From: Limosilactobacillus gorillae
Lineage (GTDB): Bacteria; Pseudomonadota; Alphaproteobacteria; CAAGCB01; CAG-977
Length of the DNA stretch: 64,000 nucleotides
NCBI GenBank assembly: GCA_963604715.1
Contig: CAVCSV010000005.1
Coordinates: 1,516 to 65,515, forward strand
Direction of reading: 5' to 3'
Below, one piece after another: positions 19,166-41,230 of the stretch. A model generated the notes under the pieces. It was not told the origin of the DNA and ran no database searches. It saw nothing but the letters and a program-made list of their open reading frames with translations. Position numbers and translations under genes: made by a program. How positions within the stretch are numbered: the stretch's first letter is position 1; the number at the start of each line of letters is the position of its first letter.

Positions 19166-19939
19166 ATGAACGTATTTTCAACGCTTTACAGGGTGTTTTA
19201 CGATAAAAAGCTTGCCGTTGAATTTATCAAAAACGGCAAAGGACGCGGCGGAAAAATGCTGCTGGTTTTGGCACTTTTCACTGCTTTGGCGATAGCCGTA
19301 CGCGGATATTTCGAAGTCGGCGCGCTGAAAAACCTGCCTGTTTCCGAAATAACGGAAAATATGCCCGAAATCGTGTTCGAAAACAACAAAATCGTTTCCC
19401 CCGAAAATTACTATGCGTCCTTTTCCGATGAAGAAAAAACGGTCAGCTTTGCTTTCGATACAACGGACGAACCGTTTATGCCGTCGTCCGTCAACGGTCT
19501 TTTTATGCGCAAAGACGCTTTAATCAGTCAGAACAACGGCGAAATTCGCGTTATTCCGTACCGCAATATCTTGAACGGAAAAAAGCTGAAAATCACCCGC
19601 GAATCGGTGCGGGCGCTGTTTCCGAAAATTGTTAACGGGATGCAAACGGCTGTTCCGTTTGTTTTTGTTGCCGTCCTGACGCCGGCGTACTTTTTGTGGT
19701 ATATTGTTTTAAGCTACTTTTACGGCGGAATGTCGTATTTGATGACGTATGCGCTGCGGCGGAAACTGGAATATGACGAACGGCTCCGCTTGTCCGTTTT
19801 GTCGCTGATGCCGTGGGCGGTTTTAAACGCGCTGGCAACTTTTATGAATATCAATATCCGCTTCGGAACCGCCAGCGGACTGTTGTTGACGCTGATTTAT
19901 ATGTTTTGTTTCCTGAAAGAGGAAAAAGACGCGGTTTAA
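19166..19939 (+). CDS. polytopic membrane protein (DUF1189-like)
   Basis: Several TM helices; often paired with the preceding small membrane protein. Confidence 0.4.
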   Translation: MNVFSTLYRVFYDKKLAVEFIKNGKGRGGKMLLVLALFTALAIAVRGYFEVGALKNLPVSEITENMPEIVFENNKIVSPENYYASFSDEEKTVSFAFDTTDEPFMPSSVNGLFMRKDALISQNNGEIRVIPYRNILNGKKLKITRESVRALFPKIVNGMQTAVPFVFVAVLTPAYFLWYIVLSYFYGGMSYLMTYALRRKLEYDERLRLSVLSLMPWAVLNALATFMNINIRFGTASGLLLTLIYMFCFLKEEKDAV

Positions 19940-20370
19940 AACAGTTCGTCGACGAACAGATACAGCGCTTCCGAAAATGTGGGAAAAGTACAGCTGTTCG
20001 TGAAATCCAGACGGTTGATGATGTGGTATTTTTGGTCCGCGCTGTCGTAAACGAACAGCTCTTCCGCCGCGCGTCCCAACAACAGCTTGCCTTGCATCGG
20101 CGCGGCGTTGGAAAATTCCAGATTGGCTTCAATCAGCCCCGGCAGGGTGTAGCCTTTGGTTTCGCGGTCGTTGGCGCGCGTGCCGTACAGTTCGACCCCG
20201 TTCCAGCTTAATCCGTCCGTTTGTTTCAGCAGGGCGACGTAGTCCAGCGGCAGGGGCGGGAATCTGTGCGATGCCAGCAAAGAGCTGACAAAACGCAGGG
20301 ACCGTTCGTCCACGGGCGGAAAAAACACCGCGCCGTCTTTTTGAATTGTGGTCAAAATCCGTCCCAGCAT
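19936..20370 (-). CDS. candidate immunity protein for the upstream HNH DNase toxin (144 aa)
   Basis: Translationally coupled (ATGA overlap) directly downstream of the toxin-like gene; no secretion signal. Confidence 0.4.
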   Translation of the reverse strand: MLGRILTTIQKDGAVFFPPVDERSLRFVSSLLASHRFPPLPLDYVALLKQTDGLSWNGVELYGTRANDRETKGYTLPGLIEANLEFSNAAPMQGKLLLGRAAEELFVYDSADQKYHIINRLDFTNSCTFPTFSEALYLFVDELF

Positions 20371-20373
20371 GGC

Positions 20374-39211: not shown

Positions 39212-40453
39212 ATGTTCCGCTTTTTGCTTCACTCAACAACCGTTTTGGCGACTCTCGCAGGACTGTTCGGATTGACCGCGTGTCAAACCCAAAACATCCG
39301 CGCGGGACGTCCGCTGGTCAATCTGGTGCGTCCGACCGATTTGCCGACGGAACCGAAAACAACGCGCGCGGCGCAGATGATAAGCTTGGAAACGCCTTTG
39401 CGCTGTACAATCGAGGAAACGCAAAAGAATATCATGACCGCCGTTCCGTTCAGACAGGAAGCGTTCAAACTGGAACGCGCGGAACAAAGCGACACGCTGC
39501 CGCTGTTCGAAGTCAAAGGCTTTTCGTTTGACGGACAAACGGCGGAAAAAGTGTTTTACAAGTTGCTTAGCGGCGCGAAAATCAAAGTCATCGGCGTTGA
39601 CGGTCCGTTCCCCGAACTTGCCGCCGAAAACATCACGGGCGAACTGTCGGACGTGATGGAAATGATTGCTTCCGCCGCCGATGTGTATTACCGCTACGAC
39701 GCCAAGCAGAAAACGCTGTTCGTCAGCCGCGAAGTCGGCTGGAACATGTTTGTTCCCGACCGCCGCGAAGTGATGATTGCCGTTCTGGATTCCCTGCGCG
39801 GGGCGGGCATGCACGATTTGTCCGTCAACTGGGAGGAAAACGTCATTTCCTTCAAAGGCGACAAAGGAACGGAAGCCAAGGTGCGCCAGCTGATTGATTT
39901 GTTCGACAAAGAACCGAATCTGATTGTGTTCAACGTGCAGGTTTTGCGCGTCAAACCGCTCAGCCCCGCCAAAGAAATCAACTGGCAGGATTTAATCGAA
40001 ACATTCGGCGCGGGAACGATTCGCGTTTCCGTCAACGGCGTTTTGGGGCGGTCGCTGGTTACGGCGCACAAAATCAACGCGCAGAGCTTGAGCCGTTTTT
40101 TGACGCCGCGCGCGCAGTTCGCCGTCGTGTCCGAAGGCATGTTCATTGCCGCCGACAAATGGCGCGCCCGTTTCGACGTCGGACGGTGCGGCTATATGTC
40201 GATGCCCGAAGCGCAGCTGTCTTTGATGGCGCAGACAGAACTTTACGGCGACCGCGGCGAACGGATGAAAACCGTCTTGACATTGGATTCGATGCAGGGC
40301 GAAATAACGTCGTTCAAAACGAAAAACACGCTGGGGGACAATATTTTGCTGATAGGCATTCCGGCGTCGTCTTTCGCCGATTCGCTCAAAGGCTATGAAA
40401 CAGTCGTCGTGCTGACGCCGCACATCATCCGCTTGGTCAAAGAAATCGTTTAA
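39212..40453 (+). CDS. secretin-family outer-membrane lipoprotein (short, about 414 aa)
   Basis: Lipobox LTAC; secretin N-domain-like segments; C-terminus matches the secretin signature (IGIPASSFADSLKGYETVVVLTPHII). Start moved to ATG 39212, which has a Shine-Dalgarno. Confidence 0.55.
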   Translation: MFRFLLHSTTVLATLAGLFGLTACQTQNIRAGRPLVNLVRPTDLPTEPKTTRAAQMISLETPLRCTIEETQKNIMTAVPFRQEAFKLERAEQSDTLPLFEVKGFSFDGQTAEKVFYKLLSGAKIKVIGVDGPFPELAAENITGELSDVMEMIASAADVYYRYDAKQKTLFVSREVGWNMFVPDRREVMIAVLDSLRGAGMHDLSVNWEENVISFKGDKGTEAKVRQLIDLFDKEPNLIVFNVQVLRVKPLSPAKEINWQDLIETFGAGTIRVSVNGVLGRSLVTAHKINAQSLSRFLTPRAQFAVVSEGMFIAADKWRARFDVGRCGYMSMPEAQLSLMAQTELYGDRGERMKTVLTLDSMQGEITSFKTKNTLGDNILLIGIPASSFADSLKGYETVVVLTPHIIRLVKEIV

Positions 40454-40465
40454 AAGGAATAAATC

Positions 40466-41230
40466 ATGTCCGATCAGGATCAACATTATCCGCATCCGCC
40501 CGTTTCCCCCGTTTACGGACAAGTTCCTCCCGCGCCGGTGGGGATGCCGCGCCCGATGCCGATGAAAATGCCGGCGGGGATGAAAATGCCGCCGCGTCCG
40601 ATGGGCTATCCCATGCCGGCGGGGATGAAAATGCCGCCGCGTCCGATGGGCTATCCCATGCCGCAACCCGTTGCGCCCCAGCCTGCCGTTCAGCCCGTCG
40701 AAGAGGAAATTCCCCCCGCCGCCGAAGAAGAGGCGGCAGAGGAACTGCAGGCCGACGAAAACGGCATTATCGACGATTTGGACGAAGAAATCCCCGTCGA
40801 ACAGGAAGAAGAGGAATTCGAAAATCCTTACGACAAAAACTTTGCGTCCGATTTGGGATTGCCCCCCGCGTTTATCAGAACGCCGATGATTTTGTTCTTT
40901 TTCCTGATGTTCACGTTTATCGGCGCGGGGTTGGGATTCTTTTACGGGACGATGGATTCGCGCGGCGCGGATGAATTGCCGGGTGTTGTAACGAACGCCG
41001 AAATTCCCAAGGGACGCCCCCGTTGCGGCATTGCCCAAAAAGGGCAGGGCTGTGTGTTTTATGTGATGAATGCTCAGCGCAAAGAATTGGAGGCGCGCGA
41101 TTTTTTCGGCATTGCGTCGGATATGCTGCAAATGCCGAAATTCCAAATCGAAACGGCGAACATCCGTTATGCGACGACGCGGATTCCCCCCGGCTACATC
41201 GCTTTGCTGAACATTCCGCCGTTGCAGTAA
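40466..41230 (+). CDS. proline/methionine-rich bitopic membrane protein (MPAGMKMPPRPMGYPMP repeats, acidic segment, one TM helix, periplasmic C-domain)
   Basis: ORF track; one hydrophobic helix (MILFFFLMFTFIGAGLGFFYG). Confidence 0.45.
   Translation: MSDQDQHYPHPPVSPVYGQVPPAPVGMPRPMPMKMPAGMKMPPRPMGYPMPAGMKMPPRPMGYPMPQPVAPQPAVQPVEEEIPPAAEEEAAEELQADENGIIDDLDEEIPVEQEEEEFENPYDKNFASDLGLPPAFIRTPMILFFFLMFTFIGAGLGFFYGTMDSRGADELPGVVTNAEIPKGRPRCGIAQKGQGCVFYVMNAQRKELEARDFFGIASDMLQMPKFQIETANIRYATTRIPPGYIALLNIPPLQ

Follow-up and report, generated by a model that had tools for sequence, protein, structure and literature searches.

In Rickettsia, islet C of the T4SS carries the genes virB9a, virB8a, virB7, virB8b, virB9b, virB10, virB11, and virD4 (PMC2653234). 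For T4SSs only N0 domains are listed, in VirB7 and DotD (PMC6536674), and the linkage of SUKH proteins with HNH nuclease domains, including domains like that of pyocin AP41, has been described (PMC3113570). In this work a 21-kb block was analyzed within a window of 64,000 nucleotides, the window being the whole stretch of DNA under study; all coordinates are positions within it. The block is composed of two adjacent islets of a chromosomal VirB/D4-type T4SS and is not an accessory or mobile island.

An initial reading of the same DNA from its letters alone (the sequence-only reading) had described one accessory block with two operon-like arms. Most of the gene content which it listed is confirmed, although its labels accessory, NERD-like, and CI-like are not; likewise the resident effector delivery that it proposed is retained, while the accessory block and the single unit are abandoned. 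The locus is chromosomal and without mobility genes, as had been claimed, and is native in composition. No tRNA is present in the block, no integrase, relaxase, or transposase domain occurs in any large ORF of the window, and no direct repeats of 12 nt or more were found at the boundaries of the block. T4SS parts are combined with a toxin-immunity pair, which argues, as before, against a recent conjugative element and for effector delivery by a resident system. The arms do diverge, but with the likely gene starts the boundary placed at 28440..28567 shifts to about 28326-28567. Neither arm is a single operon: terminator-like hairpins divide both into more than one transcription unit. Islet 1, on the minus strand, would comprise the genes for the 375-aa protein and the basic protein, a terminator, and a second group of N2, N1, VirD4, HNH toxin, and immunity protein:

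19936-20370, minus strand, immunity-type protein of 144 aa, YrhA family (SUKH-type), start 3 nt past the toxin stop
20374-21417, minus strand, toxin of 347 aa with an HNH-superfamily nuclease domain
21431-23785, minus strand, VirD4 type IV coupling protein of 784 aa (Pfam T4SS-DNA_transf, 4.2e-58)
23915-25006, minus strand, membrane protein N1 with a W-rich two-TM N-domain, a basic linker, and a C-terminal globular domain
25019-26062, minus strand, N2, paralog of N1, probable start 26062 (MKKVKLS...), the same in relatives
26176-26207, minus strand, terminator-like hairpin (14-bp stem and T run) between the basic protein gene and N2
26221-27225, minus strand, highly basic K/R-rich protein of 334 aa, closer clade only
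27312-28439, minus strand, ORF of 375 aa, likely start 28325 (337 aa)
about 28326-28567, divergent intergenic region between the arms, based on the revised gene starts

The assignment of VirD4 holds, with further Pfam matches to TraG-D_C (1e-20) and TrwB_AAD_bind (2.3e-17); Walker A (GTGKT) and Walker B (VLDEF) motifs are readable in the sequence, and a C-terminal tail of ~70 aa is D/E-rich. The call of an HNH effector is now firm: the protein ends in a true HNH-superfamily toxin domain, in which H, N, H, and H residues are invariant. This domain is preceded by a conserved N-terminal MWDWSGxK motif and a variable Pro/Gln-rich repeat linker, and followed by a lineage-specific tail of ~35-40 aa; no XVIPCD was found in the toxin. 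The domain family comprises 642 cluster representatives, in some of whose members it forms the C-terminus of PAAR-like, RHS, PT-HINT, PT-TG, and MuF proteins; a weak profile match is to pyocin AP41. Within the lineage the toxin is conserved and not polymorphic, with one copy per VirD4 locus in the loci examined, a state that a nuclease for housekeeping or DNA processing could also show. The predicted immunity gene was borne out by a match to the YrhA family (NCBIfam NF038335, 4e-18, 65.7 bits against a curated cutoff of 55), together with a weak Pfam match to SUKH_6 (0.024), and all VirD4 loci examined carry it 3' of the toxin gene. An N1-type gene is directly upstream of VirD4 in all loci examined, and the linkage N1-VirD4-toxin-immunity is retained across seven different flanking contexts.

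N1 and N2 are paralogs (BLASTP 2e-16) of a lineage-specific family, whose alignment shows that the catalytic motif differs between the two; N1 has no Pfam or PDB match, and N2 has a dN/dS of 0.21-0.30. The NERD-like fold once assigned to both is unproven, as just one of 20 homologs matched Pfam NERD (E=0.022), weakly and together with a weak REase match. The basic protein is fast-evolving (33-56% identity in relatives, dN/dS 0.18-0.25) and gave no family match in Pfam/NCBIfam-type profile searches. The 375-aa protein is likewise without a match in Pfam or PDB; its C-terminal domain also heads the VirD4 operon in the distant clade (tblastn to locus L002, 5e-18).

Islet 2, on the plus strand, would begin with VirB6a, VirB6b, a 57-aa protein, and VirB6c, followed by a terminator; its second half would hold the dual-HTH regulator and a group composed of the repeat protein, the 303-aa protein, the secretin-like lipoprotein, and the Pro-rich TM protein:

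28568-30157, plus strand, VirB6a, TrbL/VirB6 family (Pfam TrbL, 1.2e-8)
30177-31631, plus strand, VirB6b (Pfam TrbL, 1e-3)
31641-31814, plus strand, 57-aa two-TM protein within the VirB6 array, from tblastn conservation
31839-33212, plus strand, VirB6c, paralog of VirB6a (BLASTP 3e-23 over 310 aa)
33218-33244, plus strand, terminator-like GC-rich hairpin with a T run behind the stem, 3' of VirB6c
33337-34329, plus strand, regulator with two Xre-type HTH_3 domains (Pfam HTH_3, 4.2e-26, two stretches)
34341-34387, inverted repeat of 20 nt, 90% complementary, with a 7-nt spacer, between the regulator and repeat-protein genes
34410-38222, plus strand, repeat protein, ORF of 1270 aa, likely start 34425
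38290-39201, plus strand, 303-aa protein without signal peptide
39212-40453, plus strand, secretin-like lipoprotein of 413 aa, probable start 39212
40466-41230, plus strand, Pro-rich single-TM protein of 254 aa with a conserved C-terminal domain

All three virB6 paralogs originally proposed are upheld, two by Pfam and the third, for which Pfam gives nothing, by paralogy; VirB6b carries a lipoprotein-type signal with the lipobox LTAC read from its sequence. The 57-aa gene had been overlooked. It has no Pfam match and a dN/dS of 0.26-0.31, and tblastn matches stand at the equivalent position in loci L006 and L008-L023, a gene of 71 aa being called there in L006. The regulator is the best-conserved gene of the block, with a dN/dS of 0.04-0.06 and 57-96% identity across at least 346 species genomes, all of uncultured gut/rumen Alphaproteobacteria. 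[quoted passage not shown] The inverted repeat behind the regulator gene could be a terminator or an operator.

Giant repeat proteins had been announced in the plural, but the block holds a single one. This is composed of a conserved N-terminal region, Ala/Gln/Glu coiled-coil repeats, DENGxPYY repeats, and an acidic Pro/Glu tail, and tandem DNA repeats are present in its gene at 36048-36424 and 37116-37445; its sole NCBIfam match is of coiled-coil type, no signal peptide was seen, and the position of the gene behind the regulator is conserved among relatives. The 303-aa protein, with no match in Pfam, has a C-terminal half conserved lineage-wide and a dN/dS of 0.07. The lipoprotein has a lipobox, a disordered linker, an N0 domain, a ring domain, and a beta-rich C-terminal domain. 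Its AlphaFold model is confident (pLDDT 83) and all 25 significant Foldseek matches are secretins, with TM-scores of 0.14-0.26, while no Pfam Secretin signal was detected among 42 family members; the protein is thus predicted to be secretin-like by structure only, in agreement with the lipoprotein secretin first proposed. The Pro-rich membrane protein, confirmed at its place, has beyond the TM segment a conserved domain of ~110 aa (residues 143-254 in tblastn matches) for which the Pfam search was empty.

The system is a core, vertically inherited trait of a large clade of uncultured gut/rumen Alphaproteobacteria, to which belong relatives named Acetobacter sp. CAG:977, Proteobacteria bacterium CAG:495, Azospirillum sp. 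CAG:260, and Candidatus Scatocola. The block genes are inside the housekeeping range both in GC3 and in synonymous codon usage, and dN/dS values of 0.04-0.39 over all block genes indicate purifying selection. The plus-arm order is conserved in 38 of the 47 species genomes with enough flank and inverted in four more, and the succession of three to four VirB6 genes, HTH regulator, repeat protein, 303-aa protein, secretin, and Pro-rich TM protein recurs in dozens of species genomes, with VirB6 genes upstream of the module in 60 of 72 loci. The term accessory is wrong because of this native codon usage, selection, and recurrent gene order; conserved order with core-like codon usage is just what the sequence-only reading had named as contrary to itself, and it is largely what was found. 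Nor is the block one single unit: the two arms are adjacent in 16 of 72 loci, confined to the closer clade, and a relative with a 90% identical VirD4 already lacks this adjacency. It should be noted that in three loci (L048, L051, and L054) the regulator occurs without the module within 10 kb, a point against the core reading.

The secretin had been called an orphan, which in its context it is not. In 25 loci of the distant clade the Pro-rich TM gene is followed tail-to-tail, at 10-2424 bp, by VirB11 and a giant VirB10 (median gap to VirB11 about 43 bp), which places the secretin module within the T4SS cluster; inversion of the regulator, where it occurs, does not separate the module from the VirB6 genes. 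A secretin-like protein is unusually placed amid such secretion genes. A close relative shows the order VirB8-VirB7-VirB8-VirB9-VirB10-VirB11, with VirB9/CagX, a VirB10 of 2222 aa with a TrbI domain, and a VirB7 which is a 66-aa lipoprotein; the distant clade has four large VirB6 copies (427-1031 aa). VirB2, VirB3, VirB4, and VirB5 were not located, so the completeness of the machine is unproven.

We favor, at a probability of roughly 0.6, that these are islets of a lineage-core, relaxase-less VirB/D4 system which probably delivers the HNH toxin to neighboring bacteria, the remaining T4SS parts of this genome lying elsewhere than in the block. In the producer cell the YrhA-family (SUKH-type) protein would neutralize the HNH nuclease, as its family suggests. 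The invariant linkage of VirD4, toxin, and immunity genes points to recruitment of the toxin by VirD4, with a signal that may lie in the N-terminal MWDWSG motif or in the C-terminal tail specific to this lineage; a VirB channel with multiple VirB6 subunits would then pass the toxin into neighboring bacteria, where it would cut DNA. Translocation by this T4SS is thus inferred from gene linkage only. Judging from where its gene sits and how strongly it is conserved, the regulator probably controls the operons on either side. Together with its three partners, the secretin-like lipoprotein would form a lineage-specific accessory module of the T4SS machine, perhaps an outer-membrane ring or conduit, or a device that exports or anchors the repeat protein.

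An accessory island that varies from strain to strain and was inserted between housekeeping genes, for example a decayed integrative conjugative element, is very improbable and largely refuted. Housekeeping genes do flank both arms, the flanks vary among relatives, and the nearest plasmid VirD4 is located in a classical conjugative cluster; however, the flanks vary because a core system has been rearranged, not because of an insertion, VirD4 is at most 34-35% identical to any plasmid T4CP as against 63-100% for its homologs all through the lineage, and the conserved order, the spread of the regulator, the native codon usage under purifying selection, and the lack of integrase, tRNA, boundary repeat, and relaxase all oppose it. 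It also seems unlikely that the T4SS handles DNA (release, uptake, or non-canonical conjugation), with the HNH protein as a DNA-processing nuclease, the SUKH-type protein regulating it, and N1/N2 assisting as nuclease-related membrane proteins. DNA transfer typically involves coupling proteins of the VirD4 type, this nuclease is conserved and operonic with VirD4, one N1/N2 homolog weakly matches NERD and REase, and the secretin could act in DNA uptake, as does the secretin PilQ. Yet elsewhere PAAR-like, RHS, PT-HINT, and MuF toxins carry this nuclease family as their C-terminal warhead, an immunity-family partner accompanies the nuclease here, the paralogs N1 and N2 do not share the catalytic motif, and relaxase, oriT-type feature, and ParA/ssb-type transfer genes are absent from the loci.

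We likewise give little credence to effector injection into eukaryotic cells (host epithelium or gut protists) in the manner of the Rickettsiales rvh, a reading in which the effectors would be the repeat protein and further giant proteins, with the toxin pair incidental. The rvh-like multicopy VirB6, the duplicated VirB8 with VirB7 between, the scattered islets, the host-associated habitat, and several giant proteins without signal peptide in or near the block, including an LPD7 protein, would fit such a role. No eukaryote-like domains were found in the block, however, and the one effector recognizable there is a toxin against nucleic acids that comes with an immunity partner, the signature of interbacterial antagonism; moreover these are flagellated bacteria (FliI and FliJ are encoded in the window) with relatives on contigs of up to 2.04 Mb, and for basal extracellular rickettsiae the proposed function is the killing of related microbes (PMC11077975). 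It is possible, if doubtful, that the secretin-like lipoprotein and its three neighbors are parts of a different envelope system (for instance a pilus, a surface fiber, or a type II-like exporter) which has only the regulator or the chromosomal neighborhood in common with the T4SS. We know of no T4SS that uses a secretin, a terminator and a distinct regulator gene stand between the VirB6 genes and the module, and in the clade of the window iscX and RNase J, not vir genes, come after the module. Against this separation stand the position between VirB6 and VirB11/VirB10 in the distant clade, the VirB6 linkage that survives inversion of the regulator, the confinement of the lipoprotein family to genomes of this lineage, and the absence of pilin, ATPase, and platform genes of secretin-dependent systems from ~80 loci, as searched by tblastn with the window proteins and, for a few loci only, by gene and Pfam tables.

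Toxin delivery by a T4SS, the reading we prefer, can be set beside several known systems. The toxin pair resembles the polymorphic toxins with HNH/EndoVII tips and SUKH immunity (Zhang, Iyer and Aravind 2011) in its C-terminal nuclease and immediately downstream immunity gene, in the fusion of the same domain family elsewhere to PAAR-like, RHS, PT-HINT, PT-TG, and MuF proteins, and in the weak AP41 match seen also for SUKH-linked HNH domains; it differs in that the trafficking part is a short MWDWSG motif and Pro-rich linker instead of a known delivery module, and in that the gene is fixed beside VirD4, without tip swapping between relatives or orphan immunity cassettes. The 413-aa lipoprotein is much smaller than the type IVb pilus secretins BfpB and R64 PilN, to be compared along with the N0 lipoproteins DotD and Xanthomonas VirB7, and is set apart from them by its lack of a Pfam Secretin signal; unlike those of the two pilus secretins its gene lies between VirB6 and VirB11/VirB10, not in a pilus operon, and has no pilin, ATPase, or platform genes nearby. 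The closest annotated VirD4 relatives (34-35% identity) are found in VirB/Trb clusters of alphaproteobacterial megaplasmids (e.g., Erythrobacter aureus NZ_CP031358.1), which share the families VirB6, VirB8, VirB9, VirB10, VirB11, and VirD4; the plasmid cluster, however, is collinear with a MobA/MobL relaxase, VirB2, and VirB4, has a single VirB6, and lacks the toxin pair, secretin, and giant VirB10.

As in the bacteria-killing, Xanthomonadales-type X-T4SS, a chromosomal class-A T4SS has here an antibacterial toxin with cognate immunity gene as its recognizable cargo, an effector gene within the vir locus, and an associated N0-domain outer-membrane lipoprotein. The differences are an alphaproteobacterial host with scattered loci, a toxin tail of ~35-40 aa where the X-T4SS effectors have an XVIPCD of ~120 aa, and, in the relative, a 66-aa VirB7 without N0, this domain being carried instead by the separate secretin-like lipoprotein. 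The likeness to rvh lies in a chromosomal, islet-scattered arrangement with no relaxase seen near the T4SS genes examined, in tandem multicopy VirB6 (three here, four in the distant clade), in the relative's duplicated VirB8 which flanks a small VirB7 lipoprotein and is followed by VirB9-VirB10-VirB11, and in the KRSPC of that 66-aa lipoprotein, which resembles the [KI]KSP-Cys motif of Rickettsia VirB7 and ComB7. The VirB8 copies weakly match TraE and Brucella VirB8 only, so that a sequence affinity to Rickettsia is not shown. In contrast to rvh, the hosts are flagellated gut Alphaproteobacteria and not Rickettsiales, a single VirB9 is seen, VirD4 stands apart from VirB11 in its own operon with the toxin-immunity pair, and a giant VirB10 and a secretin module are embedded in the cluster.

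The divergent block at window positions 19936-41230 is composed of the genes listed below and lies between housekeeping or envelope genes, with ileS, an autotransporter, DUF5665 and DUF1189 to its left and iscX (41474-41680), RNase J, an aldo-keto reductase, gap and pgk to its right. The G+C content of the window is about 53%, and no Rfam RNA family was identified in it.

Genes of the block (window coordinates, strand, product, basis)
minus strand: 144-aa protein (immunity gene); ORF calling and translation
minus strand: 347-aa toxin; ORF calling and translation
minus strand: VirD4, 784 aa; ORF calling and Pfam
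23915-25006 and 25019-26062, minus strand: N1 and N2, membrane paralogs; BLASTP of N1 against N2, 2e-16
26221-27225, minus strand: very basic 334-aa protein; ORF calling
minus strand: 375-aa ORF; ORF calling
plus strand: three VirB6-like proteins (VirB6a to VirB6c); Pfam and BLASTP
31641-31814, plus strand: 57-aa ORF with two TM segments, between VirB6b and VirB6c
plus strand: regulator, 330 aa; two HTH_3 domains
plus strand: repeat protein, 1270 aa; ORF calling
plus strand: 303-aa protein; ORF calling
from likely start 39212, plus strand: lipoprotein, 413 aa; ORF calling
plus strand: Pro-rich single-TM protein (Pro-TM), 254 aa; ORF calling

The sequence-only reading had described this block as accessory, which is contradicted by conserved gene order, native codon usage and purifying selection. 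Two of the checks that it had proposed, for presence/absence polymorphism and for deviating codon usage, pointed against it: plus-arm order is conserved across species genomes, and block genes fall within the housekeeping range in GC3 and in synonymous codon usage. Synteny was analyzed by tblastn, with every window protein searched against the 80 best regulator loci. The recurrent order was VirB6 (three to four copies), regulator, repeat protein, 303-aa protein, lipoprotein and Pro-TM protein; it was kept in 38 of the 47 loci with at least 7.5 kb of downstream sequence and was inverted relative to the regulator in four more, and same-strand VirB6 genes lay upstream in 60 of 72 loci. Only 16 of the 72 have the divergent VirD4 arm next to it, and these belong without exception to the closer clade, in which the regulator is at least 80% identical; a relative with a 90%-identical VirD4 already has its arms apart, and in the distant clade the VirD4 operon occurs in unrelated contexts. 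In two close relatives dN/dS was 0.04-0.39 for every block gene versus 0.02-0.03 for RNase J. Conserved order, native composition and purifying selection together indicate that the block is a juxtaposition of two conserved, native modules, and we are highly confident that these are lineage-core chromosomal T4SS islets. Across the window, synonymous codon usage is most atypical in an 847-aa protein (4071-6614, minus strand) and a 579-aa protein (62144-63883, minus strand), both of which look more foreign than any block gene.

That the block is the remnant of an ICE was rejected on grounds of synteny, composition and selection, and we give this explanation hardly any weight. The absence of integrase, relaxase and transposase, noted earlier from the sequence, held for every large ORF of the window, and neither a tRNA gene in the window nor a boundary repeat of at least 12 nt was found; mobility genes, tRNA or repeat boundaries, deviant composition and patchiness, the marks of a conjugative element, ICE or island, were all lacking from the block. 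For annotation the lesson is that a housekeeping-flanked T4SS without an integrase can be core genome and not an island. The exact VirD4 sequence was present on one public contig, while uncultured Alphaproteobacteria such as "Azospirillum sp. CAG:260" yielded abundant homologs with 63-99% identity, one of them on no fewer than 1000 contigs. When one genome per species was scanned, the regulator family was found in at least 346 genomes, all of them gut, faecal or rumen MAGs, under names which include Acetobacter sp. CAG:977, Proteobacteria bacterium CAG:495 and Candidatus Scatocola.

The assignment of VirD4 was borne out by Pfam (T4SS-DNA_transf, 4.2e-58, together with TraG-D_C and TrwB_AAD_bind), and the NTPase motifs GTGKT and VLDEF can be read in its sequence; against NCBIfam PRK13897 it scored 144 bits, the cutoff being 728. 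Its nearest annotated relatives (34-35% identical) are encoded on alphaproteobacterial megaplasmids, in conjugative clusters of the ordinary collinear kind that include a MobA relaxase. The three VirB6 paralogs were likewise recovered, two by Pfam TrbL (1.2e-8 and 1e-3) and the third by BLASTP paralogy (3e-23). VirB7, VirB8, VirB9, VirB10 and VirB11 are absent from the window and were seen in L004 and L088, loci of a close relative (VirD4 90% identical), where these vir genes lie 5 kb from the VirD4 operon in the order VirB8, a 66-aa lipoprotein, VirB8, VirB9/CagX, a 2222-aa VirB10 (TrbI) and VirB11 (T2SSE). The 66-aa lipoprotein, in the VirB7 position, contains the motif KRSPC. The giant VirB10 (L088, 11470-18138) is made of long arrays of Bflower (beta-flower), DUF3659 and RHS repeats followed by the TrbI domain, and similarly giant VirB10 genes are present in the distant clade too. 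The 21-kb locus L088 carries a single VirB9, and no VirB4, VirB2, VirB5 or VirB3 was found either in the window or at up to 10 kb from the anchors that were used. The distant-clade locus L039 has VirB6 in four large copies of 427-1031 aa; the copy at 3932-7027 is fused to a Peptidase_M23 domain (6e-14) and may act as a built-in peptidoglycan hydrolase in place of VirB1.

The last 70 or so aa of VirD4 form a D/E-rich tail (window 21431-21640), and the extremely K/R-rich protein is encoded three positions upstream of VirD4, beyond N1 and N2; a charge-based pairing of the two is possible. Between VirB6b and VirB6c, the 57-aa ORF encodes two hydrophobic helices, is found at the corresponding place in relatives and evolves under purifying selection, and could be a small membrane subunit of the T4SS.

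The nuclease effector-immunity pair proposed earlier was substantiated by an HNH-family tip signature and a YrhA-family gene. The toxin is composed of a conserved N-terminal MWDWSGxK, a variable Pro/Gln-rich repeat linker encoded by tandem DNA repeats (20960-21206), and a conserved C-terminal domain (about 185 aa) in which H88, N103, H113 and H117 (domain numbering) are invariant. A word-indexed search returned only 41 homologs, which were lineage-restricted; a full HMMER profile search of 1.84 billion cluster representatives returned 642 homologs of the domain, 408 of them at E <=1e-10. In many of the 642 the domain stands at the extreme C-terminus of a long protein, and in ten long homologs Pfam identified Tox-PAAR-like (twice), PT-HINT, PT-TG (twice), RHS, MuF_C and Portal_Mu in the N-terminal parts, with a weak PF01844 HNH match (2e-4 to 5e-3) on the corresponding region in eight of the ten. 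Attachment of one domain to such varied N-terminal parts is the signature of a polymorphic-toxin nuclease tip. The 144-aa protein, encoded immediately downstream at a spacing of 3 nt, belongs to the NCBIfam YrhA family (4e-18, above the curated cutoff), which we take to be a member of SUKH, a weak Pfam SUKH_6 match pointing the same way. SUKH-family immunity genes have been linked to HNH domains related to that of pyocin AP41 (PMC3113570).

The order N1-type gene, VirD4, toxin and immunity gene was kept in seven loci with different flanks, and each VirD4 locus examined contains exactly one copy of the toxin domain. Tip/immunity polymorphism and orphan cassettes were not found, the same domain being present in all seven VirD4 loci with no extra copies. 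Remote homologs do not match the last 35-40 or so residues of the profile, which makes the tail of the toxin (...HDRSVYAGFLESTFExIAxxSxxGR) specific to the lineage. We suggest that this tail or the N-terminal motif may be the recognition signal; a test for a shared signal found no other protein with the MWDWSG motif or the tail in the loci examined. A toxin hard-wired beside its coupling protein offers a simple and testable substrate-recognition pair.

The reading that we favor, with a probability of about 0.6 for the whole chain, is that VirD4 would recruit the HNH toxin, the YrhA-family protein would keep it harmless in the producer, the VirB channel would inject it into neighboring bacteria and the dual-HTH protein would regulate the locus, with the secretin module serving as a lineage-specific envelope accessory. 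A T4SS that handles DNA, with the HNH protein as a processing nuclease, is an unlikely explanation, the toxin gene being paired with an immunity gene and no large ORF of the window carrying a relaxase domain. Effector delivery directed at eukaryotes is in our estimate just as improbable. If the antibacterial reading is true, an abundant uncultured gut and rumen alphaproteobacterial clade would join the small number of lineages believed to turn a T4SS on other bacteria as a weapon.

The term secretin, given earlier to the lipoprotein, is partly upheld, as structural matches were all to secretins, although Pfam Secretin was found in none of 42 homologs and the TM-scores were low. The family has 156 members at E <=1e-3, all from this lineage and without Pfam domains, and its profile gave only chance matches against PDB sequences. 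The AlphaFold2 model (42-sequence alignment; pLDDT 83.4, pTM 0.74) has a predicted periplasmic N0 domain and ring-building domains, and with Foldseek it gave 25 matches at E <=1e-3, mostly aligned end to end, including BfpB (2.9e-10), V. cholerae PilQ (1e-9), InvG (1e-8), ExeD/EpsD (about 1e-7) and pIV (9.5e-5); the match to the InvG barrel alone was 2.6e-5. TM-scores as low as these (0.14-0.26) are to be expected when a domain which folds only in the ring is modeled as a monomer. On the basis of this model the lipoprotein is probably, though not provenly, a secretin.

No genes for a T2SS, T3SS, T4P or phage assembly platform were present in the loci read. In 25 distant-clade loci (VirB11 and VirB10 being found in at least that many) VirB11 and a giant VirB10 follow the Pro-TM gene tail-to-tail at 10-2424 bp (median about 43 bp), so that the four-gene module of repeat protein, 303-aa protein, lipoprotein and Pro-TM protein has the VirB6 array on one side and the VirB8-VirB11 cluster on the other. 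Inversion of the regulator does not part the module from the VirB6 genes; in L046, L056, L058, L063 and L075, five relatives with the regulator inverted with respect to both, all three units are still neighbors. There is thus good neighborhood evidence that the module belongs to the T4SS; on this sub-question alone, a module unrelated to the T4SS is rather unlikely. A more specific proposal, which we advance only tentatively, is that the highly divergent secretin-family lipoprotein, its inner-membrane partner the Pro-TM protein, the 303-aa protein and the giant repeat protein form a recruited, integral outer-membrane module of an rvh-like, relaxase-less, toxin-delivering T4SS conserved throughout an order-level clade of extracellular gut Alphaproteobacteria. 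A bacteria-killing state has been proposed for the ancestral Rickettsiales T4SS, and the system would then be a living example of that state.

Other labels fared less evenly. The regulator does carry two HTH_3 domains, but the C-terminal 141 aa match neither Pfam S24 nor any PDB sequence, and CI-like stands for no more than these two domains. The term NERD-like for N1 and N2 was not upheld, as the window proteins had no Pfam match and one of 20 homologs matched at E=0.022; an acidic plus Lys motif (PD-(D/E)xK-type) is not conserved between the two. Giant repeat proteins, in the plural, hold for one protein in the block, the others being outside it. One of these, a 1450-aa protein (47724-52076, plus strand) encoded just 3' of pgk, has an LPD7 ("large polyvalent protein") domain at 1.7e-9 along with a weak YD repeat, is directly followed by a 450-aa ORF (52089-53441, plus strand) and is a plausible T4SS substrate. 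A 1380-aa giant (8759-12901, minus strand) has coiled-coil (SMC-like) similarity only and native codon usage, adjoins ileS and lies near the T4SS islets. A perfect 45-nt tandem duplication (40568-40663; 2.1 copies, 100% match) in the Pro-rich region of the Pro-TM gene suggests recent repeat expansion. Neither Pfam nor NCBIfam matched N1, N2 or the basic, 375-aa, 303-aa, lipoprotein and Pro-TM proteins, Pfam found no consistent family among 59 homologs of five orphan families and no match for small ORFs of 57, 71, 106 and 66 aa, and no useful PDB sequence match was obtained for N1, the 375-aa protein, the immunity protein or the regulator C-domain.

Terminator-like hairpins follow the basic-protein gene (26176-26207, minus strand) and VirB6c (33218-33244). 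A 20-nt inverted repeat (34341-34387) between the regulator stop codon and the repeat-protein gene, with a related half-site (33291-33305, two mismatches) upstream of the regulator gene, is a candidate terminator or operator. An operator search with the half-site gave 11 matches against 6.1 expected, which is not significant, and sigma-70-like matches (13 against 11.5 expected) showed no excess over chance.

Compared with known systems, the likeness to rvh lies in the multicopy tandem VirB6 (three copies in the window, four in L039), in the order VirB8-VirB7-VirB8 followed by VirB9-VirB10-VirB11 in L004 and L088, and in the KRSPC motif of the 66-aa lipoprotein, which is close to the [KI]KSP-Cys of Rickettsia VirB7 and ComB7 (PMC2653234). 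Rickettsia islet A is composed of virB3, virB4a and virB6a-e, and islet C of virB9a, virB8a, virB7, virB8b, virB9b, virB10, virB11 and virD4 (PMC2653234); rvh is characterized by the duplication of VirB8, VirB9 and VirB4, by several copies of VirB6 and by the lack of VirB5 (PMC11077975). Against PDB the VirB8 copies gave only weak matches to TraE and Brucella VirB8, which are uninformative on Rickettsia affinity; the resemblance to rvh is one of architecture. Membership of the X-T4SS class, for which the criteria are a VirB7 with a C-terminal N0 domain and effectors with a C-terminal XVIPCD (PMC6536674), was rejected, as the VirB7-position lipoprotein of L004 is 66 aa long without N0 and there is no XVIPCD. 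Here the N0 domain is on the separate 413-aa lipoprotein, and about 35-40 aa follow the nuclease domain in place of a XVIPCD of about 120 aa; the system may nevertheless work like an X-T4SS.

A search of the full-text literature found no description of a T4SS in RF32, CAG-239, Rs-D84, Scatocola or these gut Alphaproteobacteria. FliI and FliJ (flagellar export) and an RpoH-type sigma factor are encoded at 2015-3816 and 7753-8649; the export genes imply a flagellated source organism, and Rs-D84 gut Alphaproteobacteria, which are non-flagellated and genome-reduced with genomes below 1 Mb, are therefore a different lineage. The components are of known kinds and the combination is new: rvh-like islets in a lineage other than Rickettsiales, a toxin-immunity pair tied to VirD4, an in-cluster secretin homolog, a giant VirB10 and a VirB6-M23 fusion. 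Hallmarks such as multicopy VirB6, a VirB8 pair around VirB7 and islets, in flagellated and apparently extracellular bacteria, bear on the proposal that rvh began as a weapon against related bacteria (PMC11077975), and the secretin homolog, the 2222-aa beta-flower VirB10 and the VirB6-M23 fusion suggest an outer-membrane architecture unlike that of any solved T4SS.
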